The position numbers were made by a program, and so were the translations under genes. A stretch of DNA of 64,000 nt, from positions 3,629,168 to 3,693,167 of the forward strand of contig NZ_JAPNKE010000002.1 of assembly GCF_026626665.1 (NCBI RefSeq). Reading direction: 5' to 3'. Within the stretch, counting starts at the first letter, position 1. Each line of letters starts with the position of its first letter. The notes beneath the pieces were generated by a model, which was given only the letters and a program-made list of their open reading frames with translations, searched no databases and had not been told where the DNA came from. Below, one piece after another: positions 1 to 31,990 of this stretch. Source of the stretch: Nannocystis pusilla. Lineage in GTDB: Bacteria > Myxococcota_A > Polyangia > Nannocystales > Nannocystaceae.

Positions 1-299
1 AGCCACGCCACCTCGGGACGACCCTGCAGCCGATCGGCCAGCGCCTGCGCGCCGGCGATCGCCACGTCCGGCTCACCGCGCTCGTCCGAGACCGACAGCA
101 CCAGCGTGCGCGTCAGCTCCGAGCTGGCCATCCCGCGCGACAGCGCCGCCAGCTTGGGGTCGGCGACGTCGGCCATGAACGCGGTGATGTCGGTGACCAC
201 CTGCAGGCGCAGCGCGCAGAACGCCACCAGCCCGGCCATGAGCGCCGCGCCGAGGCCCGCCCGCCACGCGCTCGGCCTGTCTGATCGGGCAGGTTCCAT
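1..299 (-). CDS. MMPL/RND-type exporter (ApeM-like), N-terminal part; gene continues past window start
   Basis: rc from ATG at 299 reads MEPARSDRPSAWRAGLGAALMAGLVAFCALRL.. with a TM segment; sits downstream of LolA-like gene as in APE clusters. Confidence 0.55.
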   Translation of the reverse strand, partial: MEPARSDRPSAWRAGLGAALMAGLVAFCALRLQVVTDITAFMADVADPKLAALSRGMASSELTRTLVLSVSDERGEPDVAIAGAQALADRLQGRPEVAW

Positions 300-330
300 G
301 GAACAGGTGACCAGCGAGACCGCGCCGCGC

Positions 331-1008
331 TCAGCGGGCGGCCGGCGGCGCCGCGGCCGGCTTCGGCGGCAGGCTGAACAGCGAGCCCAGCTCCTCGGCG
401 GAGAACTTGCGCTTGGCGTCGACGGCCGAGAACGTGGTCACGGCCTCGTCGCCGCCGACCTCGACCACGCGCATGGTCGCGATCACCACCCCGTCGCCCG
501 CGATCTCGACCCGCTCGATCAGCTTGTCGAGCGGCGCCAGCTTCGGCTTCAGCTTCAGCGTCCAGCGCTGGCCCTCGGCCTGCAGGTCCATCGCGTACAT
601 GGTCGTCAGCGCCTCGCGGTCGCCGGCGAAGATCTTGACGAACGAGTCGACGAACAGCCGCACCGCCGGGCTCTTGTCGAGCGCGATCTCCTCGCGCCCG
701 GCGTCGTCGGCCAGCTTGAGCGCGCTGCCGTCGATCACCACCACCGAGCGGGCCGGCTTGGCCGTGTGACGGGCCAGGCGCGGCTTCTTGCCGTTCGGCA
801 CGAAGTAGATGGTGCCCTCGTTGACGAGCGGCGCGGCCAGCAGCGCCATGTGCTTCTCCTCGCGGAAGCTGGCCTGCAGCCCGCTCATCCCGGCGAACTG
901 CCCGAGCAGCTGGTCGAGCGTGATGCTGGCGACCACCGGCGCGGCCACGGTGATCGGCAGCGGCTCGGCGGCGCTCGCCTGGCCGATCGGACCGCTCAGA
1001 AAGACCAT
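331..1008 (-). CDS. LolA-like outer-membrane lipoprotein carrier family protein (ApeL-like)
   Basis: 225 aa ORF; LolA-like fold sequence; in APE-cluster position between thioesterase and MMPL. Confidence 0.65.
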   Translation of the reverse strand: MVFLSGPIGQASAAEPLPITVAAPVVASITLDQLLGQFAGMSGLQASFREEKHMALLAAPLVNEGTIYFVPNGKKPRLARHTAKPARSVVVIDGSALKLADDAGREEIALDKSPAVRLFVDSFVKIFAGDREALTTMYAMDLQAEGQRWTLKLKPKLAPLDKLIERVEIAGDGVVIATMRVVEVGGDEAVTTFSAVDAKRKFSAEELGSLFSLPPKPAAAPPAAR

Positions 1009-1077
1009 GGCCGCGAGGACATGCGCGAAAGACCTGTCCAGGCGGACATGCCCTTACGGGCGGGCGAGGATGGCGAG

Positions 1078-1484
1078 CTACACCAGGCGCTGGAGCAGAG
1101 CATCGGGCGTCTCCGACAAGAGGCGACCTTCCTGGTCGGTGGTGACGAGGATCGTCTGCCCGCGAGCCGAGCAGCGGTCGTCCTTGAGGTTGCGGATGCG
1201 ATAGGCCACGACCAGCCGCGGCGCAACCGCCACGAACCACGCGTCGACGCGGGCGCGGTCCGCGTAGCGCAGCGGGTAGGTGTAGCGGCAGTGGCTGTCG
1301 ACCAGCAGGAGGGCGTAACCCGCGCGGCGGATGTCCTCGACGTCGAGCCCGCGCGAGCGCATCAGCGCGGTCCGGCCGTACTCCATGTACTTGTAGTAAT
1401 GCCCGTGCCAGACGATGTTGAGGATGTCGACGTCGTGGAACGGGACCTCGAACTCGACCGAGACCTCGTGCAGGCGGCTCACGA
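1078..1484 (-). CDS. 4HBT/hotdog acyl-CoA thioesterase (ApeK-like)
   Basis: VSRLHEVSVEFEVPFHDVDILNIVWHGHYYKYMEYGRTALMRS.. YbgC/4HBT motif; GTG start overlaps upstream lyase stop. Confidence 0.7.
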
Positions 1485-3008
1485 CAGCGCTCCGATCGGC
1501 AACGCGCCCGCGCGCAGCAGCGTCAGCACCGCCGCGATGTCCCGGTCCTGACGGCGGTCGGCGTCGACCATCGGGATGACGCCGCGCACCGCCGCGTGCA
1601 GCGTGCGCGCCCGCGCGTGGACGTTGTGCCCCGCGCGCAGGTCGACCGCCTGGCACATGGTGAGCAGCCCGATCGCGGCGACCGTCTCGGTCAGCTCGAC
1701 GATCCGCAGGCAGTCGCGCGCCGCGATCGTGCCCATGCTCACCTTGTCCTGGTTGTGGCATTCGGTGCTGCGGCTGAAGACGCTGGCCGGCATCGTCAGC
1801 TTCAACGCCTCGGCCGCCAGCGCCGAGGCCGAGATCTGCATCGCCTTGAAGCCGTGGTGCGCCGCACGATCGGGGCCGGTGCGCCCGACCAGGTTGGCCG
1901 GCAGGCCCGCGTTCGTGTCCGGGTTGCAGACCAGCGCGATCTGACGGTCGACCAGGTCGGCGAGGTTGGCCACCGCCGTCTTGAGCGAGTCGAGCGCGAA
2001 GCAGGCGTGGCCGCCGTAGAAGTTGCCGCCGTGCAGCACCTCGCCGGTCTCCGGGTCGACCAGGGGGTTGTCGTTGGCGCCGACGATCTCGACCTCCAGC
2101 CACTGCCGGACCCAGGGTAGCGCGTCGACGAGGACCCCGATCACGTGCGGGGCGCAGCGGATCGAGTAGCGGTCCTGGATGCGGGCGGGGGCGGCCGGCC
2201 GCGGGAACTCGATATCCTCGCGGATCCACCCCGCCACGGCCCTCTGGCCGGGGTGCGGCTTGGCGGCGAAGATGCGGTCGTCGAAGTGAGCGGGGTTGCC
2301 GCCGAGCACGTCGCTGCCCATCGCCGTCAGCGCCGCGCACAGGCGCGCCAGCCGCTGCGCGCGCGCGACCGCCAGGCAACCGAGCCCGACCATGACGCTG
2401 GTCCCGTTCATCAGCGCCAGGCTCTCCTTGGGCTGCAGCACGAGCGGCGGGATCCCGGCCTCGCGCAGCGCCTCGGCCGCGGGCGCGACCTGTCCCTTGA
2501 ACCAGACCTCGCGCTCGCCGACCAGCGCCGCCACCACGTACGACAGCGGCGTCAGATCGCCGCTGGCGCCGACCGAGCCCTCGGCGGGGATCCGCGGCAG
2601 CAGGCGGTGCCGCAGCAGGTCGCACAGCCGCTCGAGCACCTCGACGCGCACGCCCGACCAGCCGCGCGCCAGCGCCACCAGCCGCACCGCCACCACCGCG
2701 GCCGCCTCGACCTCGTCGAGGATCCGCCCCGTGCCGCAGCCGTGGAAGCGCATCAGGTTGATCGGCATCGCCGCCACGTGCTCGTCCGGCACGCTCGTCT
2801 CGCACGAGTCGCCGAACCCGGTCGTGACCCCGTAGACGACCTCGCCCGCGGCCAGCCGGCGCGCCAGGTGGTCGGCGCCGCGGCCCAGCAGCGCCCGGTA
2901 CTCCGGGGCGTCGTCGAGCGCCGGGAAAGCTGTCCCTTCGGCCAGCTGAACCACGTCGTCGAGGCCGATGCCCCCGGGCCCCACGATGAGGACGCGCGCG
3001 CTACTCAC
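1479..3008 (-). CDS. aromatic amino-acid ammonia-lyase (HAL/TAL/PAL family, MIO cofactor)
   Basis: ~510 aa; GVTTGFGDS.. and GASGDLTPL (Ala-Ser-Gly MIO triad); GTG start overlaps stop of acyltransferase (GTGA). Confidence 0.85.
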   Translation of the reverse strand: MSSARVLIVGPGGIGLDDVVQLAEGTAFPALDDAPEYRALLGRGADHLARRLAAGEVVYGVTTGFGDSCETSVPDEHVAAMPINLMRFHGCGTGRILDEVEAAAVVAVRLVALARGWSGVRVEVLERLCDLLRHRLLPRIPAEGSVGASGDLTPLSYVVAALVGEREVWFKGQVAPAAEALREAGIPPLVLQPKESLALMNGTSVMVGLGCLAVARAQRLARLCAALTAMGSDVLGGNPAHFDDRIFAAKPHPGQRAVAGWIREDIEFPRPAAPARIQDRYSIRCAPHVIGVLVDALPWVRQWLEVEIVGANDNPLVDPETGEVLHGGNFYGGHACFALDSLKTAVANLADLVDRQIALVCNPDTNAGLPANLVGRTGPDRAAHHGFKAMQISASALAAEALKLTMPASVFSRSTECHNQDKVSMGTIAARDCLRIVELTETVAAIGLLTMCQAVDLRAGHNVHARARTLHAAVRGVIPMVDADRRQDRDIAAVLTLLRAGALPIGALS

Positions 3009-3881
3009 TCCGCCCTCCAGAACTCGTAGAAGTTGAACCAGTTGAGCGGCGCGAGGCGGCAGTAGTGCTCGAGGCGTTCGGCGTAGCGCTGGACATGGGC
3101 GGCGGTGGCGGCCTCGCGGCGGCCTCTGGGGAGTTCTAATTGTTCGGCGAAGGGCTCGCAATACAGATCGTAGCGGCCCTGCCCGTGATAAAGCCCGAAA
3201 GTCAAATAGATCGGGCACTTTAGCAGCGCCGCCAGGGTGTAGGGCCCGGTCGGGAAGCGCGCCGGAGCGCCCAGGAACTCGGCCGTGCAGGTCTTCTCGT
3301 TGACCCCGACCCGGTCGCCCAGCACCGCCACCAGCTCCGCGCTCGATCGCCTCCTTGGCGGCCAGGATGTAGCTGGTGTCGCGCGGGTCGATCGGGATCA
3401 CGCGCACGTCGAAGTCGGCCTGCACCGTGCGCAAGAAGTCGTTGATCATCTTCGCGTTCTGCCAGTACGCGAGGATGTGGATCGGCAGCCGCTTGTCGGC
3501 GCTGCTGGCCCGCATCGCCTCGAACGAGCCGAGGTGGGCCCCGAGCAGCAGCGCCCCCTTGCCCTGCTGCTGCAGCGCCCGCAGGTGCTCGATGCCCGTG
3601 TGCGTGATGCGGAACCGCGACGTCTCGCCGCGGACCAGGAACACGCGGTCGAGGGCGCAGCGGGCGAACGTGTAGATGTGGCGCCAGCTGGCCATAAAAC
3701 CGTGCGGCTGGCCGATCCGCCGCATGTAGTCTTGCGAGGCCCGCCGCGCCGCCCCGGCGAACAGCGCGTAGTAGAAGGTGATCACCGCCAGCAGCACCCC
3801 CGCCCCGCGGCGGCCGAACACCCGGCAGAACAGCAGCGTCGCCTTGATCCCGAGCACCGTCCCGCGCTCGGGCCGGGTCAT
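3005..3881 (-). CDS. LPLAT-superfamily (HtrB/ApeD-like) acyltransferase; reading frame broken near 3335
   Basis: N-part in frame of ORF 1479..4040 (MTRPERGTVLGIKATLLF..AKEAIERG), C-part in ORF 3005..3331 (..VLGDRVGVNEKTCTAEFLGAPARFPTGPYTLAA..); 1-nt shift at cgcgga/gctg. Confidence 0.6.
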
Positions 3882-4073
3882 CCACGCCCGGTCGCCCTCG
3901 ACCGCCGCGGCCCCGCCCGCCTCGCGCTCGCTCCCCTGCCACGCGGTGGTCGCCGGCACACCCGCCCCGCGCTCGCCCGCCGCGGCCCCGGCCCGGTTGT
4001 CCTCCGGGACATGTCCCCTCGTACCTGCCTGATGAGCCATGGCCGATCGAACCTGTCCTCTCGCGCAGCCCGG

Positions 4074-4853
4074 TCAGCGGCCGGCCGGCAGCGCCGGGCG
4101 GCGCAGGCGGCGGTAGAGGTTGACCCATGGGCGCACCATCACCCGCTGGAACGACAGCCGGGTGTGCAGCCACGAGATCTTGACGTTGTCGCCGAACACG
4201 CGGAAGTGCGACACCCCGCCCTCGTCGCGGCCGATGTAGCGGACCCGGGTCGGCAGGTTTATCACCGGCACCCCGGCCCACACCAGGCGGACCGCGATCT
4301 CGATGTCGAAGTCCATGCGGTCGCCGGTGCGCCCGAGCGCCAGCGCGGGCGCCAGCGGGTACACGCGGAAGCCGCACATCGGGTCGGTGATGACCCCGCG
4401 CCCCGCCTCGAAGTTGGTCCAGAACAGCGTGATCTTGCGGGCGACGAGCCGCCCCTTCGGCGCCGACGCGTCGTATAGCGGCGCCCCGAGGACGAGCGCC
4501 TCCGGCCGCTCGCGCGCGGTGGCGAGGAATGCGGGATGTCCCCCAGGTCATGTTGCCCGTCGGCGTCGACCTGCAGCGCGTGGGTGTAGCCGAGCTCGTG
4601 GGCGAACTGGAACCCGGTCTTGACCGCCGCCCCCTTGCCGCCGTTGTGCGGCCGCCGCCGCACGTGCGCCAGCCCCTCCGCCCCGATCGCCTCGACCGCG
4701 GCGCGGCCCTCCGGCCCCGAGCCGTCGTCGATGACCACCACGTCGGGCAGGTGCGCCTTGACCCGCAGCACCACGTCCCGCACCGTCCGCGGATTATCGA
4801 AGGTCGGGATCAGCGCGCACGGCCGGAACGCCGCGGCTTCACCTGTCCCTCGA
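4074..4853 (-). CDS. family-2 glycosyltransferase (ApeJ-like); frame break near 4533 in a C-run
   Basis: N-part ..CALIPTFDNP..VVVIDDGSG..VDADGQHDLGDIP (DxD) then -1 shift to ..AFLATARERPEALVLGAPLYD..MCGFRVYPLA.. Confidence 0.65.
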
Positions 4854-4984
4854 GACACGTCCTGGCCCCTCTCAGCGCTCACGCTCGCCTCCCGCCGCCG
4901 GCCGCACCCGGCCCGCCGCCCGGCGGACGACCTGTCCTCCCGGACATCTGGCAACGACCTGCCCCTTCGGCCATACGCACCGCC

Positions 4985-5290
4985 TCAGCCTCCGCGCGCC
5001 TCGTACTCGAGCGCCCCCGCCGTGACCACCTCGCCCGCCCGCGCCAGCGAGAAGCGGACCTGAGTCCCGCGGACCTCGAGCCGCAGCACCAGCGCGTCGC
5101 CCGGCGCGATCGGCCGGGTGAACTTCAGCCGCGCCGCCCGCCGCAGCGGCCCCAGCTCCGGCCGCAGCGCCGCCACCTGCGGCACCACCAGCGCGGTCAG
5201 CTGCGCCACCCCCGGCAGCACCGGCAGCGCGTCGAAGTGCCCGCGGAAGAACGCCAGGTCGACCGGCACCCCCACCTCGACCTCGTGCAC
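4985..5290 (-). CDS. FabA/FabZ-like hotdog dehydratase (ApeI-like); start uncertain, may be fused in-frame to upstream ligase
   Basis: ..VPVDLAFFRGHFDALPVLPGVAQLTALV.. dehydratase motif; no stop between ligase and this domain in the same frame. Confidence 0.5.
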   Translation of the reverse strand: MHEVEVGVPVDLAFFRGHFDALPVLPGVAQLTALVVPQVAALRPELGPLRRAARLKFTRPIAPGDALVLRLEVRGTQVRFSLARAGEVVTAGALEYEARGG

Positions 5291-5514
5291 CGCCGCCCCG
5301 CCCTCGTCGCGCCGCGTATGCCCGCGCAGCGCGAACGCCGACGCGCCCGGGCCCTCTGTCCCCGCGGACATGTCCCTGGGGCCACTCACCGGCGCTCCCG
5401 GGCCACCTGCCCCTGCGGACATGTCCCGTGAGCCACCCAGTCCCGCTCCCGCGCTGGGCGCGTCACTCGCCGAACTCACGGACATGTCCCTCGGGCCACC
5501 CGGCGCACTCTCCT

Positions 5515-6900
5515 CCTCGCCCGCCAGCCCGAGCAGCGCGTGCAGCTTGCGCCGCGTCAGCTTGCCGCTCGGCTCGCGCGGCAGCGCCGGCACCACCTTG
5601 ATCCGCCGCGGCACCACCACCGGGTCGAACCACGGCAGCAGCGCCCGCCGCAGCTCGGCCACCAGCTCGCCGGCGTCGCGCCCGGCCTCGCGCGCCACCA
5701 CGGCGGCCACCAGCTCGTGCCCGCGGGCGCCCGGCGACTCGACCGCCACCACCGCGGCGTCGGCCACCGCCGCCAGCGCCAGCAGGCGCTGCTCGACCTC
5801 GGCCACCGCCACCCGCTTGCCGGCGATCTTCACCACCCCGTCGAGCCGCCCGCGCAGGTGGAATCCGCCGCGCGCGTCGACCTCGACGCGATCCTCGCAC
5901 GGGTACGGCACCGGCGCGTCCGGGGCCAGAAACGGCGAGCGCAGCAGCAGCCGCCCCTCGGCCGCCACCTCGACCGTCACTCCCGGCAGCGGCGTCCAGG
6001 CTGGCTCCGGGGACATGTCTTTTAAAACATCCTCGTGCCGCCGCCAGCCGATCCCGCCGGTCTCCGACGAGCCGTACACCTCGGTCACCTGCAGGCCCAG
6101 CAGGGTCAGCAGCTCGTCGGCGGTCGCCCGCGGCAGCGGCGCGCCCGACGAGAACACCCGCGACAGCGGCGGCAAGTCGCCGCGCGTCAGCACCGTCAGC
6201 CCGCGCAGGTGCGCCGGCGTGCTGACCAGCACCGTCGCCTCCACCTGCCGCGCCGCCCGGGCCACCGTCTCGGCGTGCAGCGGCGTCTCGCGGGCGAACG
6301 CCGCCCCCGCGGCCAGCGGCGCCAGGATCCCGAACAAAAGCCCGTAGAGGTGGTACGGCGGCACCGTCGCCAGCGCCACCTCCCCGGCCCGCAGGGCGAA
6401 CGTGGCCGCCAGCGCCTGCGCCTCGCCGAGCAGCTGCGCGGCCGTCTTGGCGCACGGCTGGTGGTCGCCGGTGCTGCCCGAGGTGTACACGACCGCCAGC
6501 CGGCGATCGGCCGCCAGCGCTTCGGGCCATGTCGGATCGGCCATGTCCCTTAAAACATGTCCTTCCAGCCACTCCCGGACGTCCTGCGCGTCGGCCAGGT
6601 CGGAGTCGTGCAGCAGCGCGACCACCGACGGCCGCCCGGCCAGCTCGCGCACGGCCGCCGGCTGGGCGTTGGGCGGCAGCGCGACCGCGTGGCCGCGCAG
6701 CCACGCCGCCAGGGTCGTCACCGCCAGGTGGTAGCGGTCGCCGCACACCACCAGCACCTCGCTGCCCGGCGCGGGCCCCGGCAGCCGCGCCGCGACGGCC
6801 CTCGCGTCGCGCATGAGCTCGCCGGCCGTGCGCGCGCCGGCCTCGCCCACGGCGACGAGCGCCGCGGGATCGGTGTGGACGAGCGGGACGAACGACTTCA
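5515..6900 (-). CDS. AMP-dependent acyl-CoA/ACP ligase (ApeH-like)
   Basis: VVYTSGSTGDHQPCAKT.. (A3), YGSSETGG, ..LPREPSGKLTRRKL (A10); ATG at 6900 overlaps upstream stop (ATGA). 3' end approximate. Confidence 0.75.
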
Positions 6901-7497
6901 TGCGCGGAGCAGTCGGCGGAGCAGGCGGTCGGGCAGCCCGTCGCCGAAGCGACGGAAGGTCGCCTTGCGGACGACGAACTCGACGGTGAACATTACCCCG
7001 ATCAGCAGGTAGGCCAAAAGTCCGGTGTAGAGCGTCCACCAGGCCACCGGGGCCCACAGCGCCAGGCCGGCGCTGACGGCCGCGTTGGCGACGAAGAAGC
7101 CGCACCAGATCTTGGTCCACGTGCGGCAGTACGCCGGCCCGCCGGGCGGCAGGTCGGGCTCCTGCAGGCGCGCGAACCGTTCGACCAGCGACACCGGCCC
7201 GCGCAGGCTGGCGGCGAAGTTGGCCAAGAGGCCCAGGTTGACCAGCACCGGCAGGGCCATGAACAGCCGTTGCTCGCCCGACAGCGCCGCCGCCGCGAAC
7301 AGCCCGAACAGCGACAGCGGCACCCGCAGCACCGGCCACAGGTCCTCGCGCCGGGCCTCGCGCAGGCGCAGCAGAAGCCCCGGCAGCAGCGCCACCGCCA
7401 GCACCAGCGCCAGCGTGCGCGGGCTCCAGCGCGTCATGCCGAGGTACACGACCAGCGGATAGCCGCCGATCACCACCGACCGCAGCACCGCGGGCAC
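6898..7497 (-). CDS. integral membrane protein of APE operon (ApeG-like)
   Basis: 199 aa, 4-5 predicted TM helices, stop overlaps ligase start. Confidence 0.5.
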   Translation of the reverse strand: MPAVLRSVVIGGYPLVVYLGMTRWSPRTLALVLAVALLPGLLLRLREARREDLWPVLRVPLSLFGLFAAAALSGEQRLFMALPVLVNLGLLANFAASLRGPVSLVERFARLQEPDLPPGGPAYCRTWTKIWCGFFVANAAVSAGLALWAPVAWWTLYTGLLAYLLIGVMFTVEFVVRKATFRRFGDGLPDRLLRRLLRA

Positions 7498-7555
7498 CCA
7501 CCTCGGGACCCCGCGGCTCGCCGCGGCTCGCCGTTCGGGTCCGCCATGTCGGGCC

Positions 7556-7843
7556 TCAGCTCGCCGCCGGCGCGCGCTGTTCGGCGACGAAGCGGGCCAG
7601 GTTGGTCACGCTGGCGAAGATGTGGCGGTTCTGGGCGTCGTCGGCGCGGGTCTTGACGCCGTACTTCTTGCCGATCGCCATCGCCAGCTCGAGCACGTCG
7701 ATCGAGTCGAGGCCCAGCCCCTCGACCAGGAGCGGCGCCTCCGGGTCGATGTCCTCGGGGGTCATGTCCTGCAGCATCAGGGCCTCGATGATGAGCTCCT
7801 TGATCTCGCGGACCAGGGCTTCGGGCGGCGCGGTCTCTGTCAT
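7556..7843 (-). CDS. acpP: acyl carrier protein
   Basis: 95 aa, LGLDSIDVLEL phosphopantetheine-attachment motif; first gene of minus-strand operon (ApeE-like). Confidence 0.85.
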   Translation of the reverse strand: MTETAPPEALVREIKELIIEALMLQDMTPEDIDPEAPLLVEGLGLDSIDVLELAMAIGKKYGVKTRADDAQNRHIFASVTNLARFVAEQRAPAAS

Positions 7844-8011
7844 GGGGTCGGCGCATCCTACGGGGATCGCCCTGGAGACGACAAGCGGCGCCCATCATCC
7901 TCCGTGGACGCCCGAGCCGCGCGCTGCGGTCACCGACACGGCGCAAGCTCACATCTCACCCTGGCTCTTGGTGCAGGCGACCTCGGCGGCCCTCGGTACG
8001 CTCGCCGCCGC

Positions 8012-8791
8012 ATGACAAGCACCCAGCAACCGCGGATCGCCATCGTCACCGGCGGCGGCAACGGCATCGGCCGCGCCACCGCTCTCAAGTTCGCCGAGGC
8101 CGGCTACGGCGTGGCCGTGTGGGACCTGGCCGAACAGGCAGCCGAGGAGGTCGTGTCCGCGATCACCGCCGCCGGCGGCGTCGCCATCGCCCGCAAGGTC
8201 GACGTCAGCAAGCCCGAGGACTGCGTCGCCGGGGTCGCCGCCGTGCTCGAGCGCTTCGGCCGGATCGACGTCCTCATCAACAACGCCGGCGTCGTCCGCG
8301 ACGGCCAGCTGGTCAAGGTCAAGGACGGACAGGTGGTCGGTCAGATGAGCGCCGACCAGTTCCAGTTCGTCCTCGATGTCTGCCTCAAGGGCGTGTTCAA
8401 CTGCACCCAGGCGGTCGTGCCGACGATGATCGCCCAGAAGTACGGGCGGATCGTCAGCACCAGCTCGGTGGTCGCATTGTACGGCAACTTCGGCCAGACC
8501 AACTACGTCGCCGCCAAGGCTGGCGTCGTCGGCATGACGCGCGTATGGGCGCGCGAGCTCGGCCGCTACGGCATCACGGCGAACGCCGTCGCCCCGGGCT
8601 TCATCGCCACGGACATGGTCAAGAGCATCCCCGAGAAGGTCTACAACGCGCTGATCGAGCACACCCCGGTCGGCCGCGCCGGACTGCCCGACGACATCGC
8701 TCGCGCCTATCTCTTCCTGGCCGACGACAAGTCGAGCTTCATCAACGGCGCCATCTTGAGCGTCGACGGCGGCTCCGTCATCGGCACCTGA
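8012..8791 (+). CDS. fabG: 3-oxoacyl-ACP reductase (SDR family), divergent from APE operon
   Basis: IAIVTGGGNGIGRA.. Rossmann motif, NNAG, S..Y..K triad; strong FabG-like sequence. Confidence 0.85.
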   Translation: MTSTQQPRIAIVTGGGNGIGRATALKFAEAGYGVAVWDLAEQAAEEVVSAITAAGGVAIARKVDVSKPEDCVAGVAAVLERFGRIDVLINNAGVVRDGQLVKVKDGQVVGQMSADQFQFVLDVCLKGVFNCTQAVVPTMIAQKYGRIVSTSSVVALYGNFGQTNYVAAKAGVVGMTRVWARELGRYGITANAVAPGFIATDMVKSIPEKVYNALIEHTPVGRAGLPDDIARAYLFLADDKSSFINGAILSVDGGSVIGT

Positions 8792-8972
8792 ACCGCCGCA
8801 CGCGGTTCTGATCGGGCCTCACGGGCGGCGAACGGCGTCCGTGACGGCGCGCGCGGCGCTGAACAGCCTCCGCCACGGCAGGCCCTCACCCTGCCCGCGC
8901 GGACCTCCGTCCGCGCGCGGCATTTTGCCCCTTCGTTGCAGCAGCAGCGCGAAAAGACTAGCGTAACGGGCG

Positions 8973-10754
8973 ATGCACGACGACGGCGCGCGCTGGCTAC
9001 CCAAGTTTCTCGCGGACAGCGGCTACCGCCACGCGATGTATACCCATCAGTGGACCGAGGTGCTGATCTGGCGCGACACGGAGCGGTGGCTCGGCCGCGG
9101 ACCCGATCGTGACAGCGCCCTCGAAGATGCGCTGACGCAGATGTTTCCGTCGGCGGCCGCGCGTCAACTCTTCGATCGCTTCCGCGACGGCCTCCAGGAG
9201 CCAGCCCGTCCGCAGGCGGCGCCACCCAGCGCCGCAGTATCCGCCGAAGTTATCCCCACCGCCCCGCCCGCCGCGCCCGAGCAGCCCGAGCTACCGCGCA
9301 GCCCGATCGTCGGCCGGATCCAGCTACCGACTTATCCCGCGGCTGCGGTCGCCGAGGCGCGCGAGACCCTGGAAGAGATCCTCAAGGACATCCAGGACAT
9401 GCGGCCCGACTTCGCGCTGATGTCGCCGCGCTATCAGAAGGTCTACATGCTGGCCTGGATCTCCCGCGCGCGCAGCTTCGACGAGCAGTTCCAGGGCGAG
9501 CACAAGATCACCGTGCTGGTGCGGCGGATCGCCCACGAGCTGACGAACCTCAGCAAGACCTTGTGGCCCGGCTCGGTGCAGGCGCTGCAGATGAACGCGG
9601 TGCCCGCGTGCGTGGTCACCGAGCTCGGGCTGAAGACGCTGCACGCGCCGAAGACCTGGGCCGAGGCGCACGAGTTCGTGCAGAACCATCGCGAGCGCGC
9701 GATGACCAGCGAGGTCCCGGTCGACGACTACGGCTGGGCCGACCGCCCGCGCAAGGCCCCGCCGGGCCAGCCCCGCGCCCTCCTGCGCGAGGCCCAGCGC
9801 GCCGTCGAGGCCATCGCCGGCAACGTCACCGACCCGCCGCCGCGCCACCTCACCACGCCGCCCGAGGAGCTGCCGAACGAGCAGCTCGACGCGCTCGTCA
9901 AGCACGCCCAGGCGCTGCGCGACATCCGTCGCTTCATCGCCGCCGAGGACCCCGAGACCTGGGGCGCCGTCATGGGCCGCCTGCGCTGGCTCGCGGGGCG
10001 CCTCGGCGAGCGCCTGCCGCAGCTGCGCCGCTGGCTCGACCCCGAGTTCATCCCGCCGCCCGAGCGCGCCAAGACCGGGCCCTCGGCCGATCAGGTGCGC
10101 CAGCAGCAAGCGGCGGTGCGAGCCGAACGCGACGCCCTGGTCGCCGCCGACAGCTTCGACGACGAGGCCCTGCTCGCCTTCCTCGGCCGGGCCTTCGACG
10201 CCCACAACACGCCCGAGGTCGCGTCGCTGGTCCAGCCGATCCGCCCGCGCATCGACGCCCTGCGCCCCGACCTGTTCGAGGACCGCCGCATGCGTCGCCG
10301 CCTCACCGGCCTGCAGGACGTGATCAAGCGCGGCGAGCTCGGCGTGCTGCCGTCCGACAGCGACAGCGACCTCGAGGAGGAGACCGACGACGTCGACGAT
10401 CCGGGCGCGCACCTGGTCGCCCAGGTCCGGCCCAAGGTCGAGGGCAAGCGGGTCCTGTTCGTCAGCAACCGCGAGGACCCCGACCTCAAGTCGAAGCTCG
10501 AGGAGTCGCTCGGCCTCGACATCACCTGGTGCGACGGCAACGCCCGCAAGGTCCAGGCCCAGTGCGAGAGCATCTCGCGCCACAGCTACGACTACGTGCT
10601 CATCGCCACCGGCTTCCAGGCCCACAACATCGACGGGATCCTCGCCCGCGCCGCCCGGGCCAGCGCCATCCCGTACGTCCGCGTGTTCAAGGGCCGCCCC
10701 CTCGCGGTCGCCCGCGCCCTCGCCCGCACCCTCGGCGTCGCCTCCGCCGCCTGA
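8973..10754 (+). CDS. hypothetical protein, possibly DUF2325-like C-terminal domain
   Basis: 593 aa ORF with balanced amino-acid composition; ATG at 8973. Confidence 0.55.
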   Translation: MHDDGARWLPKFLADSGYRHAMYTHQWTEVLIWRDTERWLGRGPDRDSALEDALTQMFPSAAARQLFDRFRDGLQEPARPQAAPPSAAVSAEVIPTAPPAAPEQPELPRSPIVGRIQLPTYPAAAVAEARETLEEILKDIQDMRPDFALMSPRYQKVYMLAWISRARSFDEQFQGEHKITVLVRRIAHELTNLSKTLWPGSVQALQMNAVPACVVTELGLKTLHAPKTWAEAHEFVQNHRERAMTSEVPVDDYGWADRPRKAPPGQPRALLREAQRAVEAIAGNVTDPPPRHLTTPPEELPNEQLDALVKHAQALRDIRRFIAAEDPETWGAVMGRLRWLAGRLGERLPQLRRWLDPEFIPPPERAKTGPSADQVRQQQAAVRAERDALVAADSFDDEALLAFLGRAFDAHNTPEVASLVQPIRPRIDALRPDLFEDRRMRRRLTGLQDVIKRGELGVLPSDSDSDLEEETDDVDDPGAHLVAQVRPKVEGKRVLFVSNREDPDLKSKLEESLGLDITWCDGNARKVQAQCESISRHSYDYVLIATGFQAHNIDGILARAARASAIPYVRVFKGRPLAVARALARTLGVASAA

Positions 10755-10788
10755 GCCGCTGGCTCCGAGGGCGTGTCCTCTCGGACAG

Positions 10789-11060
10789 GTCTTCGCGCGC
10801 ATGTCCTGGCGCATGTCCTGGCGCGCATGCCCTGGCGCGCATGTCCTGGCGCGCATGTCCTCGCGCGCATGTCCTCGCGCCCATGTCCTGGCGCCCATGT
10901 CCTCGCGCGTATGCCCTGGCGCCCATGTCCTCGCACGCATGTCCTCGCGCATGCCCTCGCACGCACGTCCCCGCGCATGTCCTCGCGCGCATGCCCTCGC
11001 ACGCACGTCCCCGCGCATGTCCTCGCGCGCATGTCCTCGCGCGCATGTCCTCGCAGACAC
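10789..11060. repeat. tandem array of ~18 copies of a 15-bp unit GCGCATGTCCTSGCG
   Basis: read directly: gcgcgcatgtcctggcgcgcatgtcctcgcgc.. continuous; intergenic. Confidence 0.85.
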
Positions 11061-12029: not shown

Positions 12030-12295
12030 GCCGCACGCACATGTCCCTCGGGACAGTATTCTCGCGTGCCGAGGTCGTCGCCACGAACCGCCCGCCCCAC
12101 CACGACCACATGTCCCTTCGGACAGTATCATCGCGTGCCGAGATCGTCGCCGCGAACCGCCCGGCCCGCCACGCGCACCTGTCCCTTCGGACATTTTTCT
12201 CACGATACCGAGCTCGTCATGTCGCACCGCTCGGCCCGTCGCACGCACCTGTCCCTTCGGACATTCTCGTCACTGCACCGCGATCGTCACCTCGA
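12030..12295. repeat. ~4 tandem copies of a ~65-70-bp unit each containing CACATGTCCCTTCGGACAGTAT hairpin
   Basis: direct reading; intergenic between XRE gene and convergent lipoprotein gene. Confidence 0.8.
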
Positions 12296-12892
12296 ACGGC
12301 CCGCTCTTGCGCGTGCCCGTGACCGTCCAGCGGTCGAGCGTGCGCAGCTGCGAGTACGCGCGCAGCAACGCCTCCATGTCCCCCACCGCTTGCCCGGCCA
12401 CGGTGCGCACCAGGTCCCCATTTTAAAACCCAGCAGCGCCAGCGGCGACTCGGAGCGGATTGCGAACAGCTTGAAGCCGACCGCCTTGCCGTCCTCCATC
12501 GCCGGGAGCACGCGCGCCAGCCGGGCCATCGCCTCGGGCGCCGCCATGAACGCCTCGAGCTCGCTGCGCTTCACCACGCAGGTCCCCTCGGCGCACGTCG
12601 GCGACAGCGTCGGCGTCGCCTCTCCTGCCGGCGGAGCGTCCGTCGCCGGCGCTGGCGGAGCGTCACCGGCCCCACCGGGCGGAGACCGGTCGATCTCGCA
12701 CAGGACCCGATCGGCCCGCGCCTTCGCCAGCTCGCTCGTCAGCGACTCGATCCGCTGGCCCTGCTCCTTGACCAGCGCCGACGTCGCCGCCAGCTCCGCC
12801 CGCACCGCCGCCAGCTCCCTCTCCTTCGCCGGGTCGCAACCGCCCAGCAGCAGCCCCAGCAACATCCACGCGCCGATCCATCGTCCCGACAT
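12269..12892 (-). CDS. lipoprotein with coiled-coil and PDZ/GspC-like C-terminal domain; frame break at the TTTTAAAA motif (12421-12428)
   Basis: MSGRWIGAWMLLGLLLGGC lipobox; C-terminal ..GDLVRTVAGQAVGDMEALLRAYSQL..FEVTIAVQ in a different frame from body. Confidence 0.45.
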
Positions 12893-13252: not shown

Positions 13253-13455
13253 GGACAGCTTTCTTAAGTACGTGGAGTGTGGGCTCCGCCACCATCGATC
13301 AGCCGCGGGACGCAGCTCGCCAGCTCGACGCCTACCGTCCCCGAGGCGCGCGCTGCCGGTTCGGACATGACTCTAGAATCATGTCCCTCAAAACATGTCC
13401 ATCACGCCATGTCGCCCCCATGACAGCGCCCCCGCCGCGTGCCAGACTCGCCGCG

Positions 13456-14559: not shown

Positions 14560-14832
14560 CCCGACACGCAGCCTGAGCCCGCCGCGTCGCGCCGGCCGCC
14601 TGCCCCTTCGCTCATGTCCGAAGCGCCAGCTCACCGTCGCGTCGGCGCGAGACCCACGCCCGGCGCCGAACATCCGGGCTCCGGCGCTCCGCCTCACGCT
14701 CGCACCGGGCGAAAGCCTGTCCCGAAGGGCAGGCGCCGGCTCAGCCCTTGCGCCGGCGCGCCCGGACCACGCAGCGGGCCGCGCGCTGCGGGCGGAACAG
14801 CGTCCTCGCCAGCGCCCACACCCCCTCGGCGG

Positions 14833-17447
14833 TCACCGCCGCCACGCGCTGCGGGTACGCGAACGCGCGCGCGGCAGCCCGTAGACCTCGGACAGCGCCA
14901 GCAGCGACGCCATCCGGCTGCGGCGCTGCTGGCCGAGCTCGAACTGCCCGACCAGCCACGCCTTGGCGCGCTCGACCTCCGCCGTCGACGGCGGCTCTCG
15001 CACCGCGCGCTCGACCTCCGCCGCGATCGCGGCCATCGCCTTCGGCAGCTTGTCCTGGCTGGTCGACGCGTGGATCGCCACGTGGCCGGCGTCGAGGCCC
15101 TCGACGCTGCTCATCGACACCTCGTACACCAGCCCCTGGACCTCGCGCAGCGCCGTGAACAGCCGCCCGGTCTGGCCGCCGAGCACCGCGCTGAGCACGT
15201 CGAGGGTCGGCTCGCGCTCGTCGCCGACGGCGATGCCCGGCCAGCCGAGGGCGATGTGGGCCTGCTCGCGGTCCTGGAAGATCTCCCGCTCGCGCGGCCC
15301 GGTCGGCGCCGCGAACTTCTTCGGCGCTCCTGGCCCTTCAGACAGCCTGTCCCCGAGGCCAGCCTCGCGCAGCGCCGCCTCGACCTGGGCCGCCGCCGCC
15401 GCCACGTCGATGTCGCCGGCCAGGGCCAGCACCGCCTGCCCGATCGGGTAGTCGCGGCGCCACAGCCCGCGCAGCTTGGCCGGCGTCAGCGCCCGCAGGC
15501 CGGCCGGCGTGCCGCGGCCCGGTCGGCTGAACGGGTGCTCGCCGTACAGCAGCGCGTTGAGCCCGCGGCTGGCCACCGCGCCGGGGTCGTCGACCTCGGC
15601 CGCCAGATCTTGCAGCGCCACCCGCCGCTCCTCCTCGAGCTCGTCGGCCGCGAACTTCGGCGTCGTCGCGCAGTCGAGCGCGTGCCCGAGCACCGCCGGG
15701 AAGTGGCGGCTCAGGCACTCGAAGTGCAGGCCCAGGCTGTTGCGGCCGGCGAAGCCGTCGAGCCCCGCGGCCATCCCGTCGATCGCCCGGCTCAGCGCCT
15801 CGCCGCCGGTGCGGGCGTTGCCGCGGGTCAGCAGCGCCGCGATCACCGAGTTCGCGCCGGCCAGCGCCGCCGGCTCGCGCCGCAGCCCGCCCGGCCAGAT
15901 CAGCCAGCCCGCCGCCACCGGCACCGCCGGCTCGACCCGCGCCAGCAGGCGCAGCCCGCACGCCAGGGTCACCGTCTCGATGCCGTCGCTGGCGCAGCGC
16001 GGCCTCACCCCGGCGCGCCCCGGCGTCGCCGCCGGCTTCAGCGCCTCGGCCACCGCGGCCTTGATCGACCTGGCCTTCGGGACATCCACCTCCGCGCGCG
16101 GCAGCTCGAGGCTGACGCTCGCGCGCGCCGGGTCGAGCCAGCGCGCGCAGGCCGAGCGGACCGCCTCGGGCGTCAGCGCCGCCAGGGCCGCGTAGTACTC
16201 GCGCTCGCGGGCCAGGTCGCCGAACAGCGTCGCGCAGGCCCCGAGCGCGTGCGCCTGGCCCTGCACCGTCTCGCGCCGGTACACCAGGTCGCTCTCGAGG
16301 ATCGCCTTGGCCCGCGCCAGCTCCTCGGCCGACACCGGCGCGTCCGCCAGGCGCCGCACCTGGGCCAGCACCGCCGCCACCGCCGCCGCCGTCTGGCCCG
16401 CGGTCGTGCGCGCCGACACCATCACCGTCCCGCCGTGGCGCAGCGTGTCGCAGTGGGCCTGGATGTCCGAAACGACCTGTTCTTTGCGACGTGTCTCGGC
16501 GACCAGGCGCGACGACTCGCCGTTGCCGAGCACCACCGCCGCCGCGTCGATCGCCGCCGCCTCGGCCGCGCCCGCCGCCGGGGCCGGCCAGGCCAGCAGC
16601 GCGTAGGTCTCCTGGACCTCGGCGCGGCGCAGCGTCACCCCGGCTTCGCCGCCGGCTCGCCCGCCGTCGCGCGCCTCTTGGCCGCCGGCAACGCGCCGAC
16701 GATCGCCCGCGCCACCTTGCGCAGCGCCGCCACGTCGACCGCGCCGACCGCCACCAGAGTCAGCCGCTCGCCGGCATAGGCGCGCCGGTGATACCCGCGC
16801 AGCCGCGCCGCCGAGTGCCCCGCGACCTCCTCCACCAGGCCGAGCACCGGCCGCGCGTACGCGTGCGCTCCGTACACCCGCGACAGCGCCGCCTGCGTCA
16901 CCCGCTGGCCCGGGTCGTCGTCGTACTGCTTGATCTCCTCGATCACCACCTCGCGCTCCTGCCCCAGCGTGGCCGGGTCGAGCGTCGGGAACAGCGTCGC
17001 GGTGGCCACCAGCGCCGCCGCCTCGGCCGCGCGGGCCGCCGGCGTCGTCACGTGGACCACCGTCTCGTCGTGGCTGGTGAACGCGTTGATGTCGCCGCCG
17101 AGCGCCTCGATCGCGCCCGCCAGGTCGAACGCCTCCTCGGCCCGCCGCACCCCGGCCGCCGCCAGGCGCGCGCGGTTGCTCTTCGGGCCATGTCCCAAAA
17201 CACATGGCTTGAAGAGCATGTGCTCGAGCAGGTGGGCGCAGCCGTGCTCGTCCTCTCGCTCGGCCGCCGTGCCCGAACCGACCCACAGCTGCACCGCCGC
17301 CGGCCCGGCCCCGGCCGGTCGCCCGGGCAGGATCAGCAGGCGGGCGCCGTTGGCCAGCCGCTCGTCGACGAGCGGCGCGAATTGAGTGGCGGCGCCGGGG
17401 AGATCGAGGCCGCGGGGCGAAGGAGGCGAGACGGGCAGATCGGGCAC
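14833..17447 (-). CDS. M16-family zinc peptidase, tandem active + inactive halves (pitrilysin-like); frame break near 16640
   Basis: HLLEHMLFK (HxxEH) in N-half (ORF 16635..17447), remainder in ORF 14833..17514 from GVTLRRAEVQETYALLAWP onward. Confidence 0.7.
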
Positions 17448-17842: not shown

Positions 17843-18214
17843 GTGCTCTCTCCGACGCTCGCGTTGCGCTGCCCGCATTGCCAGCACGCGCTCTCGCTCG
17901 CCGACCTCCGCGACGCCGCCGACTGCCCCGCCTGCCGGCAGCCCCACGGCTTGCCGCCGGCCGTCGCCGACGCGCTGGCCCTCTACGAGCGGGCGATCCA
18001 GCAGGCCGTCAGCGACCTGGTCCACAGCGCACCTGTCCCGAAGGTCAGCCCCGAACCCGACGCCGAGATCCCGCCGCCGAGCCCTCGGCTCCACGCGCGT
18101 CACCAGCCCGGCCCTCGGCCAGGCTGCTCGCCGCGCCCGTCCCGCCGACCACCCTGCTCTCGATCGGCCCGGCCCCGCCGCCCGCCGTCCCGACCCCCAT
18201 GCGACCTGTCCTGA
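17843..18214 (+). CDS. zinc-ribbon protein (CPHC..CPAC); may be N-terminus of a longer repeat-containing membrane protein ending 19838
   Basis: CxxC-N17-CxxC; downstream frames remain coding-like through repeat region. Confidence 0.4.
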   Translation: MLSPTLALRCPHCQHALSLADLRDAADCPACRQPHGLPPAVADALALYERAIQQAVSDLVHSAPVPKVSPEPDAEIPPPSPRLHARHQPGPRPGCSPRPSRRPPCSRSARPRRPPSRPPCDLS

Positions 18215-18379
18215 GGGACAGCAACGCTCCGCTCGCCGCCCCCGAGCCCGGCGACACCCTGGAGGGCCCCGCCCCGGCCGCTGGACCGACGCCCGCCCCG
18301 GCACCCAGGCGGCCGAGCTGGCCGCGGGCCTGCCCGCCCACGGGCACGACGCCGCGCCGGAGCCGGCCCAGCTGTCCCT

Positions 18380-18700
18380 GCCCGTCGACGCGCCTGTCCC
18401 TGCGGACAGCCTCCACCAACCTGCCCTCGCGGACAGCCCCCGGCCACCTGTCCCCATGGACAGCCATGACCTCGACCGCGCGGCCACGCGCTCCCCACCT
18501 GTCCCCACGGACAGCCGTGCCCCCGACCGCGCGGCCACGCGCTCCTCGCCTGTCCCCACGGACAGCCGTGACCTCGACCGCGCGCCCACGCGCTCCCCGC
18601 CTGTCCCCACGGACAGCCGGCCATCATCTGTCCCTTCGGACAGCCACCTCGCCGCCCTCCGCGCCTCCTCGTCACCTGTCCCTGCAGACAGCTCACCCGC
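18380..18700. repeat. cluster of ~9 CCTGTCCC-N2-4-GGACAGC palindromes, ~50-bp period, in-frame encoding PPVPTDSRDLDRAATRS-like repeats
   Basis: read directly from sequence. Confidence 0.75.
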
Positions 18701-18860
18701 CGCGCCGGGCCTCCGCACCGCGGTCGCTCCCGGCTTCGACCCCGCCGCGCTGTCCGGCCCCTTGCCCGCCCCGCGCGAGCAGGTACCTGGCCTCGGGGCC
18801 AGCCTCGCCCGCGACCCGGCCGCGCGCACGGCCGCCGGCGACACCCTCCCGGGCGCCGCG

Positions 18861-19842: not shown

Positions 19843-20268
19843 GTGTCGGTCACGCGTGAACACGCGACCACGTCCGCCCGGTGTCCCCAGTGCGGCACCG
19901 GCGTGACCGTGCATCACACCGTCGCCCGCCGCGACGACGGGGTCCGCTGGTCCACCGCGATCCGCTGCCTCGCCTGCGGCCTCTCGCTCGAGTCGGACAG
20001 CAACGCCGGCGACTCGGCCGCGCGAGCGGCCGTCCTCGCCACCAACGGCTCGTGGATCGTCCGCCTCACCAGCCTCGGCCCGCGACCGATCCGCGTCCTG
20101 CAGGCCCTCCGCGACATGCTGGGCCTCTCGCCGGCCGTCGCCCGCACGCGCCTCGACGCCCTCGCGCAGGGCACCCGCGTCGAGATGGAGGCCCTGCTGG
20201 CCAAGTTCGTCCGCGAGGGCGCCGAGGGCACCTGCGTCCGCGTCGAACCGACCTCCGGCCCGCGCTGA
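19843..20268 (+). CDS. zinc-ribbon protein with ribosomal L7/L12 C-terminal-like domain
   Basis: CPQC..CLAC; C-terminus ..LGLSPAVARTRLDALAQGTRVEMEALLAKFVREGAEG resembles L7/L12 CTD. Confidence 0.5.
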   Translation: MSVTREHATTSARCPQCGTGVTVHHTVARRDDGVRWSTAIRCLACGLSLESDSNAGDSAARAAVLATNGSWIVRLTSLGPRPIRVLQALRDMLGLSPAVARTRLDALAQGTRVEMEALLAKFVREGAEGTCVRVEPTSGPR

Positions 20269-21212: not shown

Positions 21213-21299
21213 GCGCCGCCCCGACGCCAGCCATCTGTCTCGTCGGCCACGTCCGATAAGACATGTCCTATCGGACATATCCTCCCGCTCTGCCGCGCC

Positions 21300-30712: not shown

Positions 30713-31990
30713 ATGTCGCGCTGCCTGTCTCTGGCCCTGGTCTTCGCCCTCGCCGCCCCGCCCGCGGCCGCCCACCCGCTGGCGCGCACCCCCGACCCGG
30801 GCGCCTGGCAGCCCGCCGGACCCTCGGGACATGTCTCGGATGACATGCCCGAGAGGACACCCTCACGGACCCTCCCGCCGGCTGCTCCGGCGTCCGCCTC
30901 CGCCAACCTGTCCCCAAGAACATCCCCCCTGGCCGCGTCCCCAGGGTCAGTCCGCATGACCACGGCCGCGCCCGTCAACCTGTCCCTACGGGCAGCCGAT
31001 CCGCCCTCGCCTACCCCGCCGTCCCCTCTCGACGAAACACCCTCGGGGACAGCCGACCCGGCCGCCACCGACAACCTGTCCCCGGGGACGCCCGCCCCTG
31101 CCCCGCCTCGCCCCACCTCAAGTGTCCCGGGAGACATGTCTTCCGGGACATCTCCCCCACCGAGCCCGTTCGCCTCGCTCCCGCCGCCGATCCGCCGCTC
31201 CCGCCCGCCCCGCCGGCCCTCCCGCCGCACCTCATGCGCCTGCGGCCGGCCGTCGACGTCCCCGTCATCGCCCTCGGCCTCGTCATGTGGCTAGGCACCG
31301 ATCTCGCGGCCCGCGACATGCGGTGGTCCGGCTGTCAGGCCTGTGATCGCAGCCACATCAACGGCCTCGATCGGCGCGTCCTCGGCAACGAGAGCCTCGC
31401 GGCCGCCCACGCCTCCGACGCCCTGCTCTACACCGCGATCGCCGCTCCGATCGTCGCCGACCTCGCCGACACCCTCCTCGCCGGCCGCCGCGCCCCGGCT
31501 CCTACCGTCACGCCGCCGGCGGCTGGGCCCGCGACGTGGTCGTCCTGTTCGAGGTCCTCGCCGTCAACGTCGGCCTCAACAACCTCGTCAAGTACGCCGT
31601 GCGCCGCCCGCGGCCCTACAGCTACGAGCCCGAGAGCGAGCTCGGCGACGTCCAGGCCGAGGAGTCGCGCCTGTCCTTTATTCAGGTCACACCTCGACCG
31701 CTTTCGCCATGATGAGCGCCTGGGCCACCCTCTTCACCCTGCGTCACCCGCGGGCCCGCGCCGCCGTCCCGGCCTGGCTGCTCGCCGTCGGCCTCGGCGC
31801 CACCACCGGCGTCCTGCGCGTCGAGGCCGGCAAGCACTTCTGGACCGACGTCCTGTTCGGCTCCGTCGCCGGCACCGCCATCGGCGTCCTCGTTCCGCTG
31901 CTCCACCGCAACGATCGCGGCCGCCGCTTCTCCGCCGGCATGAGCCCCACCCCGCGCGGCGCCCTCGTCAGCCTCACCGGCCGCTTCTGA
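30713..31990 (+). CDS. PAP2-family phosphatase with signal peptide and N-terminal Pro/Ser-rich repeat region; two frame breaks (~31500, ~31680 in T-run)
   Basis: KYAVRRPRPY (KxxxxxxRP), SGHTS, ..RVEAGKHFWTDV (SRxxxxxHxxxD) PAP2 motifs across three frames. Confidence 0.65.

Follow-up and report, generated by a model that had tools for sequence, protein, structure and literature searches.

AT-cored motifs in Nannocystis pusilla as probable diverged members of a family of short palindromic repeats

The window analysed here, a 64-kb stretch of Nannocystis pusilla DNA with a G+C content of 72%, contains many copies of a short palindrome, TGTCC-N4-GGACA, that lie both between and within its genes. 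Nannocystis genomes are among the largest in bacteria. The first part of the window (1-10750) is occupied by a conserved lipid or aryl-polyene-like gene cluster that encodes an aromatic ammonia-lyase, a 4HBT thioesterase, a LolA-like protein, MMPL, DUF3261 and GT2 proteins, a lipid-A-type acyltransferase, a ligase-hotdog fusion, an ACP and a KR. This cluster is similar to pathways of the aryl-polyene or xanthomonadin type, and its synteny is preserved in a second N. pusilla strain (CP185339, locus L001), in N. exedens (L002) and N. punicea (L003), and across the Nannocystaceae (L013-L015). The fusion gene (AMP-ligase/hotdog) hosts the palindrome copies at 6014 and 6542 as well as others in its linker. 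Five AT-cored motifs in the window, two of them in this gene, were originally predicted to be copies of one structure that behaves as a small insertion tolerated in protein loops. The observation behind this original prediction is largely real, and its interpretation is partly right and partly wrong.

The five sites read GGACATGTCTTTTAAAACATCC (6011-6032), CATGTCCCTTAAAACATGTCC (6542-6562), GGTCCCCATTTTAAAACCCAGC (12413-12434), CATGTCCCTCAAAACATGTCC (13380-13400) and GGCCATGTCCCAAAACACATGGC (17186-17208). Four of them are real and related, while the one at 12413 is unrelated and shares only TTTTAAAAC with the rest. When up to three mismatches are allowed, CATGTCCCNNAAAACATG has 8 matches in the window against 0.07 expected from shuffles; the sites at 6542 and 13380 match it perfectly, 17189 has one mismatch in a shifted register, and 6014 has three. 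The AT core is indeed unusual, as TTAAAA occurs four times in the 64-kb window and three of these occurrences fall within the sites. It had been overlooked that the copies are palindromes, and hence inverted repeats as well as 14-nt direct repeats, and that they belong, in degenerate form, to a much larger TGTCC-N4-GGACA family. Their minus-strand form is CATGT(C/T)(C/T)-N4-(G/A)GACATG, and the individual copies read CATGTTT-TAAG-GGACATG (6542), GATGTTT-TAAA-AGACATG (6011), CATGTTT-TGAG-GGACATG (13380) and CATGTGTTTTGGGACATG (17189). All four are inverted repeats about a 4-nt centre.

The exact 14-nt pattern TGTCC-N4-GGACA is found 19 times in the window against 0.17 times in shuffled sequence, and a version that permits transitions, TGTYY-N4-RRACA, is found 30 times against 0.10. 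By themselves the half-sites are scarcely enriched, with 103 and 72 occurrences where 61 and 55 are expected. The spacing from TGTCC to GGACA is near-exclusively N4, which accounts for 19 of the 25 pairings that occur within 40 nt in the window. Eighty distinct aligned copies give the consensus nnACATGTCCnnnnGGACAnGTCn, and when flanks are included the consensus extends to the 24-nt form GGACA|TGTCC-N4-GGACA|TGTCC. Abutting palindromic units of this kind create a 14-nt lattice, and this lattice accounts for the direct repeat that was first noticed, for the runs of CATG at 6528/6542/6556 and 13366-13408, and for the 20-unit array at 10774-11054. A 14-nt direct repeat as the primary structure is ruled out by the restriction to N4 spacing, since the period follows from the abutting units. 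No perfect 24-mer GGACATGTCC-N4-GGACATGTCC is present in the fetched Nannocystis loci, and its one match, on a viral contig, is uninformative. A further palindrome at 58583, within an IS110 transposase gene, is not counted as a family copy because conserved G-x-D-V-H-K-D codons account for it.

In nine Nannocystis loci the family reaches densities of 2.5-10 copies per 10 kb. It is sparse in three other genomes of the Nannocystaceae with ligase identities of 56-64%, at 1-2 copies per 9-18 kb, and three of these five copies are inside the ligase gene. Clear through-coding sequence surrounds 9 of 83 copies (11%), compared with 865 of 1559 random positions (55%), and 39% of the copies have no coding signal on either side, compared with 10% of random positions. 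A frequent placement is 20-40 nt past a stop codon, as seen at 10774, 4933, 1035 and 12250 in the window and at 5002, 11965 and 15890 in the second N. pusilla strain. Other copies span a start codon. In the GT2 gene, for example, the sequence (A/G)TG TCY CGA GGG ACA is the annotated start in both the second strain and N. punicea, where the ATG lies within the palindrome.

Tandem units of 45-69 bp that each carry one palindrome are found at several loci, and the number of units varies between species. The copies at 12042-12263 differ in number and spacing among the second N. pusilla strain, N. exedens and N. punicea. Arrays with the shorter 14-bp period also vary between strains: the one at 10774, which begins 20 nt past the stop codon of an upstream plus-strand gene, has ~20 units in the window versus 2-3 in the second strain. 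A short-read assembly of the same strain breaks immediately before this array. Further palindrome arrays lie at 20301-20475 in the second strain (57-59-bp units), at 7399-7825 in locus L011 (45-48-bp units) and at 4997-5065 in locus L008 (68-bp units). The L011 array sits in a long coding-like repeat (gcttccggcttcgcctcgc...).

Table 1. Palindrome copies and associated features in the window.
Feature	Position	Strand	Remarks
Family copy	1035..1048	-	26 nt past 4HBT stop; overlaps likely LolA-like start (ATG TCC GCC TGG ACA)
TGTCC-TCCG-GGACATGTCC	3998..4016	-	Within first ~14 codons of acyltransferase gene
Two family copies, ligase-GT2 junction	4844..4946	-	4933 is 38 nt past ligase stop; 4844 lies over likely GT2 start
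AMP-ligase/hotdog fusion gene, 638 aa	4985..6901	-	100% identical to NCBI Nannocystis pusilla AMP-binding protein
Disordered ligase linker, AMP-binding_C to hotdog	5357..5489 (between the domains: 5338-5500)	-	TGTCC-CCGC-GGACATGTCC at its start
Palindrome copy in AMP-ligase	6014..6031	-	GATGTTTTAAAAGACATG; codons D-V-L-K-D-M; most AT-rich centre of the set
Palindrome copy in AMP-ligase	6542..6559	-	CATGTTTTAAGGGACATG; codons H-V-L-R-D-M
Array of ~20 tandem 14-bp units, CATGTCCTCGCGCG	10774-11054		10774..11059 in all, with palindromes at both ends (10774, 11046)
Four family copies in 69-bp tandem units	12042..12263		Between convergent genes
Site with 1-nt deletion at ~12420-12424	12413..12434	-	Not a family member; breaks GspC/PDZ-like lipoprotein gene (12273-12892, -)
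Intergenic palindrome, CATGTCCCTCAAAACATG	13380..13397		~55-75 nt upstream of annotated start of ORF (open reading frame) ending 13886
Degenerate copy in M16 peptidase	17189..17206	-	CATGTGTTTTGGGACATG; codons (P)C-V-L-G-H-G; 12 of 14 core positions match
Eight family copies, four in 51-bp (17-codon) tandem units	18207..18690		Weak coding signal
ATGTCC-TATC-GGACAT palindrome	21264..21277	-	First ATG of ORF 19914-21278
Three family copies	30909..31150		Two back to back: TGTCCCGGGAGACATGTCTTCCGGGACA

A minority of copies sits in frame in coding sequence, in disordered linkers and surface loops. Both ligase sites were correctly translated in the original prediction, as EDVLKDMSP and EGHVLRDMAD in the AMP-ligase frame, and their assignment to loops is borne out by an AlphaFold model of the ligase (mean predicted local distance difference test score, or pLDDT, of 79). 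The site at 6011 is in a coil between strands 282-288 and 302-304 (pLDDT 63), and the site at 6542 is also in a coil (pLDDT 67). The RDMS linker scores ~30 and is predicted to be disordered. It holds three GGACATGTCC units (5366, 5417 and 5480) that encode three PRDMS/SRDMS repeats, and across strains the number of these RDMS units ranges from 0 to 5. At the 6542 site, a third CATG is found 14 nt further on, at 6528.

Extra residues accompany some of these copies, which is partly in line with the proposed insertions. Relative to the ~50%-identical homologs P0051, P0052 and P0058, the ligase has exactly six additional amino acids (18 nt) at the 6011 site, and 18 nt is the length of CATGTCC-N4-GGACATG. 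These residues are kept in all closer relatives, including the Nannocystaceae relative L013 (63%-identical ligase), where the palindrome itself has decayed. An insertion of 19 amino acids accompanies the copy in the M16 peptidase. The 6542 site, however, has equal length in every homolog.

The codons used to encode the motif are rare within their synonymous sets (GGA 2.5%, CAT 10%, GTT 2.7%, TTA 0.1%, AGG 1.8% and AAA 1.3%). CAT GTT or CAT GTC C nevertheless persists in ligases with 56-63% protein identity, and relatives in this range retain one or the other ligase copy while the surrounding loop residues vary. Four Nannocystis genomes share the same arms at 6542, and L013 still has CAT GTT there. 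A single conserved codon context does not explain these cases, since different genes read the motif in different frames and through very rare codons. The motif is therefore a nucleotide-level element that is held at the nucleotide level. The recurrence of HVxxDM and DMS in the ligase and its linker could suggest that a favoured peptide, or chance, is responsible and that the DNA likeness is secondary. Yet one DNA motif, read in three frames and from either strand, encodes HVLRDM, CVLGHG and PVPTDS, it is also common outside coding sequence, its codons have usages of 0.1-10%, shuffles predict 0.07-0.17 copies, and more distant homologs do not have the peptide. For practical purposes this explanation is refuted.

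The AT core was proposed as the defining feature of the motif, whereas comparison of orthologous sites places it in a variable palindrome centre that reads TCGG, TGGG, CGGG, TGAG or TGGA in other genomes. The site at 6011 has four forms in four Nannocystis genomes: CATGTCC-TCGG-GGACATG, CATGTCT-TGGG-GGACATG, GATGTTT-TAAG-GGACATG and GATGTTT-TAAA-AGACATG. The first of these is the N. punicea sequence, which is a perfect palindrome. The 6542 centres are TAAG, CGGG, TGGA and TGAG, with TCGA in the 63%-identical relative, and the arms are unchanged. Between the two N. pusilla strains, 2.8% of positions in the ligase gene have changed, compared with 3/8 and 2/8 positions of the two 8-nt centres (P = 0.001 and 0.02) and 0/10 positions in the palindrome arms. 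On this comparison, the AT core is the fast-changing centre of the palindrome, made up of the loop and two inner stem pairs, between arms that are fixed.

Because orthologous sites have GC-rich centres of the same length, the AT core arose in place. The changes in the N. pusilla centres are C-to-T and G-to-A and give TTTTAAAA-like centres. A general decay of centres from GC to AT by deamination is ruled out by the sister strain, which has a GC-rich CGGG at 6542. The coding copies are also older than the Nannocystis species compared, and none of them is recent, since all of these species carry them. The original prediction had proposed lineage-specific insertion, but N. exedens, N. punicea and the second N. 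pusilla strain have coding copies at the same positions and with the same lengths.

The proposed genome search for the AT-cored motif was made with the strict 21-mer CATGTCCCNNAAAACATGTCC in one genome per species for 185,579 species. It returned eight matches, seven in Nannocystis (N. punicea, N. bainbridge, N. radixulma and sp. RBIL2) and one stray match in a metagenome-assembled genome of Actinomycetota. The strict form is therefore essentially restricted to the genus and rare there (0-3 per genome), and only one of the seven Nannocystis matches is the ligase ortholog. Such a distribution, with seven orthologous or non-orthologous places spread over four Nannocystis species and practically none outside them, is what might be expected if CATGTCCC-TYAAAA-CATGTCC were a distinct small inserting element whose recent insertions are tolerated in loops. 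Identical 17-18-mers at different sites also fit this explanation (TGTTTTAAGGGACATG at 6542 here and at 6011 in the second strain, and CATGTTTTGAGGGACATG at 13380 here and at 6542 in N. punicea), as do the insertions of 6 and 19 amino acids that coincide with two copies. We consider it improbable, because sister species have GC-rich centres of equal length at the orthologous sites, because the 0-3 strict copies per 12-Mb genome compare with several general palindromes per 10 kb, and because 6542 has no indel, 12413 is not a copy, and the insertions predate the species compared.

The copy in the M16 peptidase gene directly follows HLLEHMLFK and opens a lineage-specific insertion. The claim that extra residues follow HxxEHMLFK holds: 49 amino acids separate HxxEH from NAFT in this protein, whereas solved structures and most of 50 representatives have 28-31 and the closest representative has 45, so that the extra length is 19 amino acids relative to typical relatives and 4 relative to the nearest representative. 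When compared with N. exedens, the M16 gene (14786-17447, minus strand) has two more frame breaks at ~16640 and ~14865, one of which is a base missing from a G run and the other the loss of four nucleotides, CGCG, from a (CG)n run. Either real mutations or long-read assembly errors may account for them, and the gene of the second N. pusilla strain is split elsewhere.

The frame break at 12413 is also real, since tblastn alignments with N. exedens and N. punicea proteins change frame at ~12416. However, there are no CATGTCC arms at this site. N. exedens and N. punicea read GGC TTC AAG AAC GGG GAC at this position, and both N. pusilla strains read GGT TTT AAA A-T GGG GAC. The frame break is thus a genuine 1-nt deletion that is unrelated to the palindrome. 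Programmed -1 frameshifting was considered, as the site (G GGT TTT AAA A) has a slippery-like G GGT TTT followed by a hairpin, with a minus-strand fold of -10.7 kcal/mol. A -1 slip would meet TAA directly, and recovery of the ancestral frame would require a non-canonical slip. A pseudogene is thus more likely than programmed frameshifting for this lipoprotein gene.

The intergenic copy at 13380 belongs to a run of four CATG sequences with 14-nt spacing (13366-13408). Its counterpart in the second N. pusilla strain has diverged to GGACATGTGCTTCGGAACATG, and no counterpart is present in N. exedens or N. punicea. The site had been assigned to a promoter region, and a simple scan there showed no sigma-70-like site. 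In the stretch at 17844-19838 (plus strand), a zinc-ribbon ORF ends at a TGA in the loop of the palindrome at 18207 (TGTCC-TGAG-GGACA). A clear coding signal returns in another frame at ~18740, with eight palindromes in between, and the ortholog of this stretch in the second N. pusilla strain is annotated as a single 622-aa protein. Tandem repeats that are unrelated to the palindrome are found at 33143-33391 (52-bp units with 90% identity) and at 33891-34482 (150/312-bp coding-like repeats rich in Cys/Gly codons). An IS110-family transposase gene (DEDD_Tnp_IS110 + Transposase_20) is located at 57408-58667 (minus strand) within a stretch of low G+C content from 52 to 60 kb (0.655-0.67). REP-like sequences are among the targets of IS110 elements.

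The family most closely resembles the repetitive extragenic palindromes known as REP sequences, which are palindromic, short (14-40 nt in E. coli) and usually extragenic, with a common consensus and many copies (PMC12306157). Applied here, these published features are all found: the Nannocystis element is palindromic, short and mostly extragenic, and it has a common consensus and many copies (PMC12306157). The AT-cored motifs are best explained as diverged copies of a short, REP-like and hairpin-capable palindromic family that has been amplified in Nannocystis, an explanation to which we assign a probability of roughly 0.6. As with REP elements, a copy would be able to fold into a short hairpin as part of a transcript or of single-stranded DNA. 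Hairpins at gene junctions might act as 3'-end or stability elements and might mask start codons, while the coding copies could be old insertions, or local duplications of 14 or 18 nt, that the proteins tolerate. An AT core would then weaken the hairpin and reflect rapid turnover of an exposed centre rather than mark a separate functional class. Arrays could arise by slippage on the 14-nt lattice together with duplication of longer units.

Folding predictions give hairpins of -6 to -16 kcal/mol (z-scores from -1.2 to -4.6), and those with AT cores are weak (about -6 to -8 kcal/mol). Several results weigh against this explanation. The AT-cored hairpins at 6011 and 13380 are barely more stable than shuffled sequence (z = -1.2). 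Compensatory double changes of the inner pairs number 5 across copies where 4.1 are expected, which is no excess, and the five outer positions are paired at 49.3% compared with 48.4% in column shuffles (slid registers give 24-35%). The strand on which pairing is compatible with G-U is inconsistently the sense strand, with the copies at 13380 and at 2512 of the N. radixulma locus (L007) in the opposite orientation. Direct signs of transposition and target-site duplications were not found, and the gene tables of the fetched loci list no Y1 transposase, although no genome-wide search for a REP-associated transposase was made. Similarity between copies ends at ~14-24 nt, beyond which the flanks are unrelated, and genome-wide copy number is an extrapolation from ~190 kb of sampled DNA rather than a whole-genome count.

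A sense-strand RNA hairpin that is kept by G-U wobble was also considered. The three coding copies in the window fit this model, but it is rejected by the opposite orientation of the 13380 and N. radixulma copies and by the negative copy-to-copy covariation tests. A double change between orthologs is seen once, from C-G to U-A at the 6011 site. No Rfam family matches the window at the gathering threshold.

The lack of covariation indicates conservation of the arms as sequence, a pattern that protein recognition would explain at least as well as a free hairpin would. The main rival explanation is accordingly that an abundant dimeric protein, such as a nucleoid-associated protein or global regulator, binds the palindrome in duplex DNA. 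Each monomer would read TGTCC across a free centre, in the 5-N4-5 arrangement of FNR- or Cro/CI-type operators; AT-rich centres would alter only bendability, and arrays would be platforms for multiple dimers. Like FNR/CRP and Cro/CI operators, the element has two inverted 5-bp half-sites and a fixed, free 4-bp centre. The strictly fixed spacing and the half-sites conserved as sequence agree with this model, as does the match of each half-site to the consensus independently of the other. Arms that are conserved in coding sequence across genera despite rare codons, and copies over start codons and 5' regions, are also consistent with binding. Operators differ from the Nannocystis palindrome in copy number, in tandem amplification, and in the positions of copies 3' of and inside genes. 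Several copies per 10 kb is far denser than any known operator regulon, whole 45-69-bp units with non-palindromic flanks are tandemly repeated in strain-variable numbers and look replicative, many copies directly follow stop codons or separate convergent genes, and the cognate protein is still only putative. To our knowledge, no operator consensus matches the half-site TGTCC. A protein site is thus possible, and we rate it well below even odds.

Returning to REP-like repeats, the comparison with known families reveals both shared and distinguishing features. With the REP sequences and bacterial interspersed mosaic elements of Enterobacteria and Pseudomonas, the Nannocystis family shares short, GC-rich, imperfect palindromes (14-24 nt here) with a common consensus and many copies, placement mainly after stop codons and at operon junctions, and tandem clusters that vary in number between strains. 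It differs in its shorter stem and strict 5-N4-5 core, in clusters that are direct tandem rather than alternating, and in the visible minority of copies that lie in frame in conserved enzyme genes or over start codons. In addition, no flanking GTAG-type tetranucleotide is seen, and no REP-associated tyrosine transposase (RAYT) is known for the family.

Rickettsia palindromic elements (RPE) are in-frame repeats of ~105-146 bp in protein genes, with similarity over their full length (PMC3184786). The Nannocystis coding copies are likewise palindromic repeats that lie in frame inside protein genes and leave the protein intact, and at ligase site 6011 and in the M16 peptidase, though not at ligase site 6542, the copy coincides with additional residues in surface or linker regions. 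Their shared unit is 14-24 nt (6 codons), whereas RPE-type elements are 5-10 times longer, and the coding copies are ancient and orthologous across species in a family whose members are mostly extragenic. The REP2 repeat of Neisseria is found directly upstream of genes and carries a promoter and ribosome-binding site as well as an ATG start codon (PMC3184786). Several Nannocystis palindromes similarly contain a start codon (ATG TCC), although the REP2 unit is longer and includes the promoter and ribosome-binding site. The comparison also extends to sequences involved in DNA uptake. The DNA uptake sequences of Neisseria are short, over-represented, present in coding DNA, and often arranged as inverted pairs after genes. 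They are single oriented 10-12-mers tied to natural transformation, whereas nothing seen here links the Nannocystis palindrome to DNA uptake, and its inverted N4 arrangement is obligatory.

Neither the REP survey (PMC12306157) nor a full-text literature search contains a description of the motif or of Nannocystis REP sequences, and a literature search with the motif sequence returned only papers on p53 half-sites, which are coincidental. The family is thus apparently a new, genus-specific REP-like repeat that is undescribed in the searchable literature. What sets it apart is the presence of long-conserved intragenic copies with a hypervariable centre. One explanation of these copies goes further and holds that the palindrome is functional inside genes, with an 18-nt (6-codon) unit that is spread or re-templated by a sequence-specific mechanism, selection that maintains it across genera both in the loops of enzymes and over start codons, and a hypermutable centre. 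Such re-templating might involve a hairpin-recognising recombinase or gene conversion among copies. We regard this explanation as speculative and rather unlikely.

The narrow result is deflationary, in that the AT core is no new element, just the part that varies at the centre of a repeat of known type. The repeat itself breaks short-read assemblies, seeds strain-variable arrays, adds residues to proteins and supplies start codons. With their rare codons and fast-changing centres, the coding copies offer a good system for the study of hairpin-forming DNA that is tolerated or used within genes. If the intragenic unit does prove to be functional, it would be the smallest known in-frame coding repeat element and, as a conserved hairpin or operator within genes, it would link the biology of a genome-wide repeat to translation.

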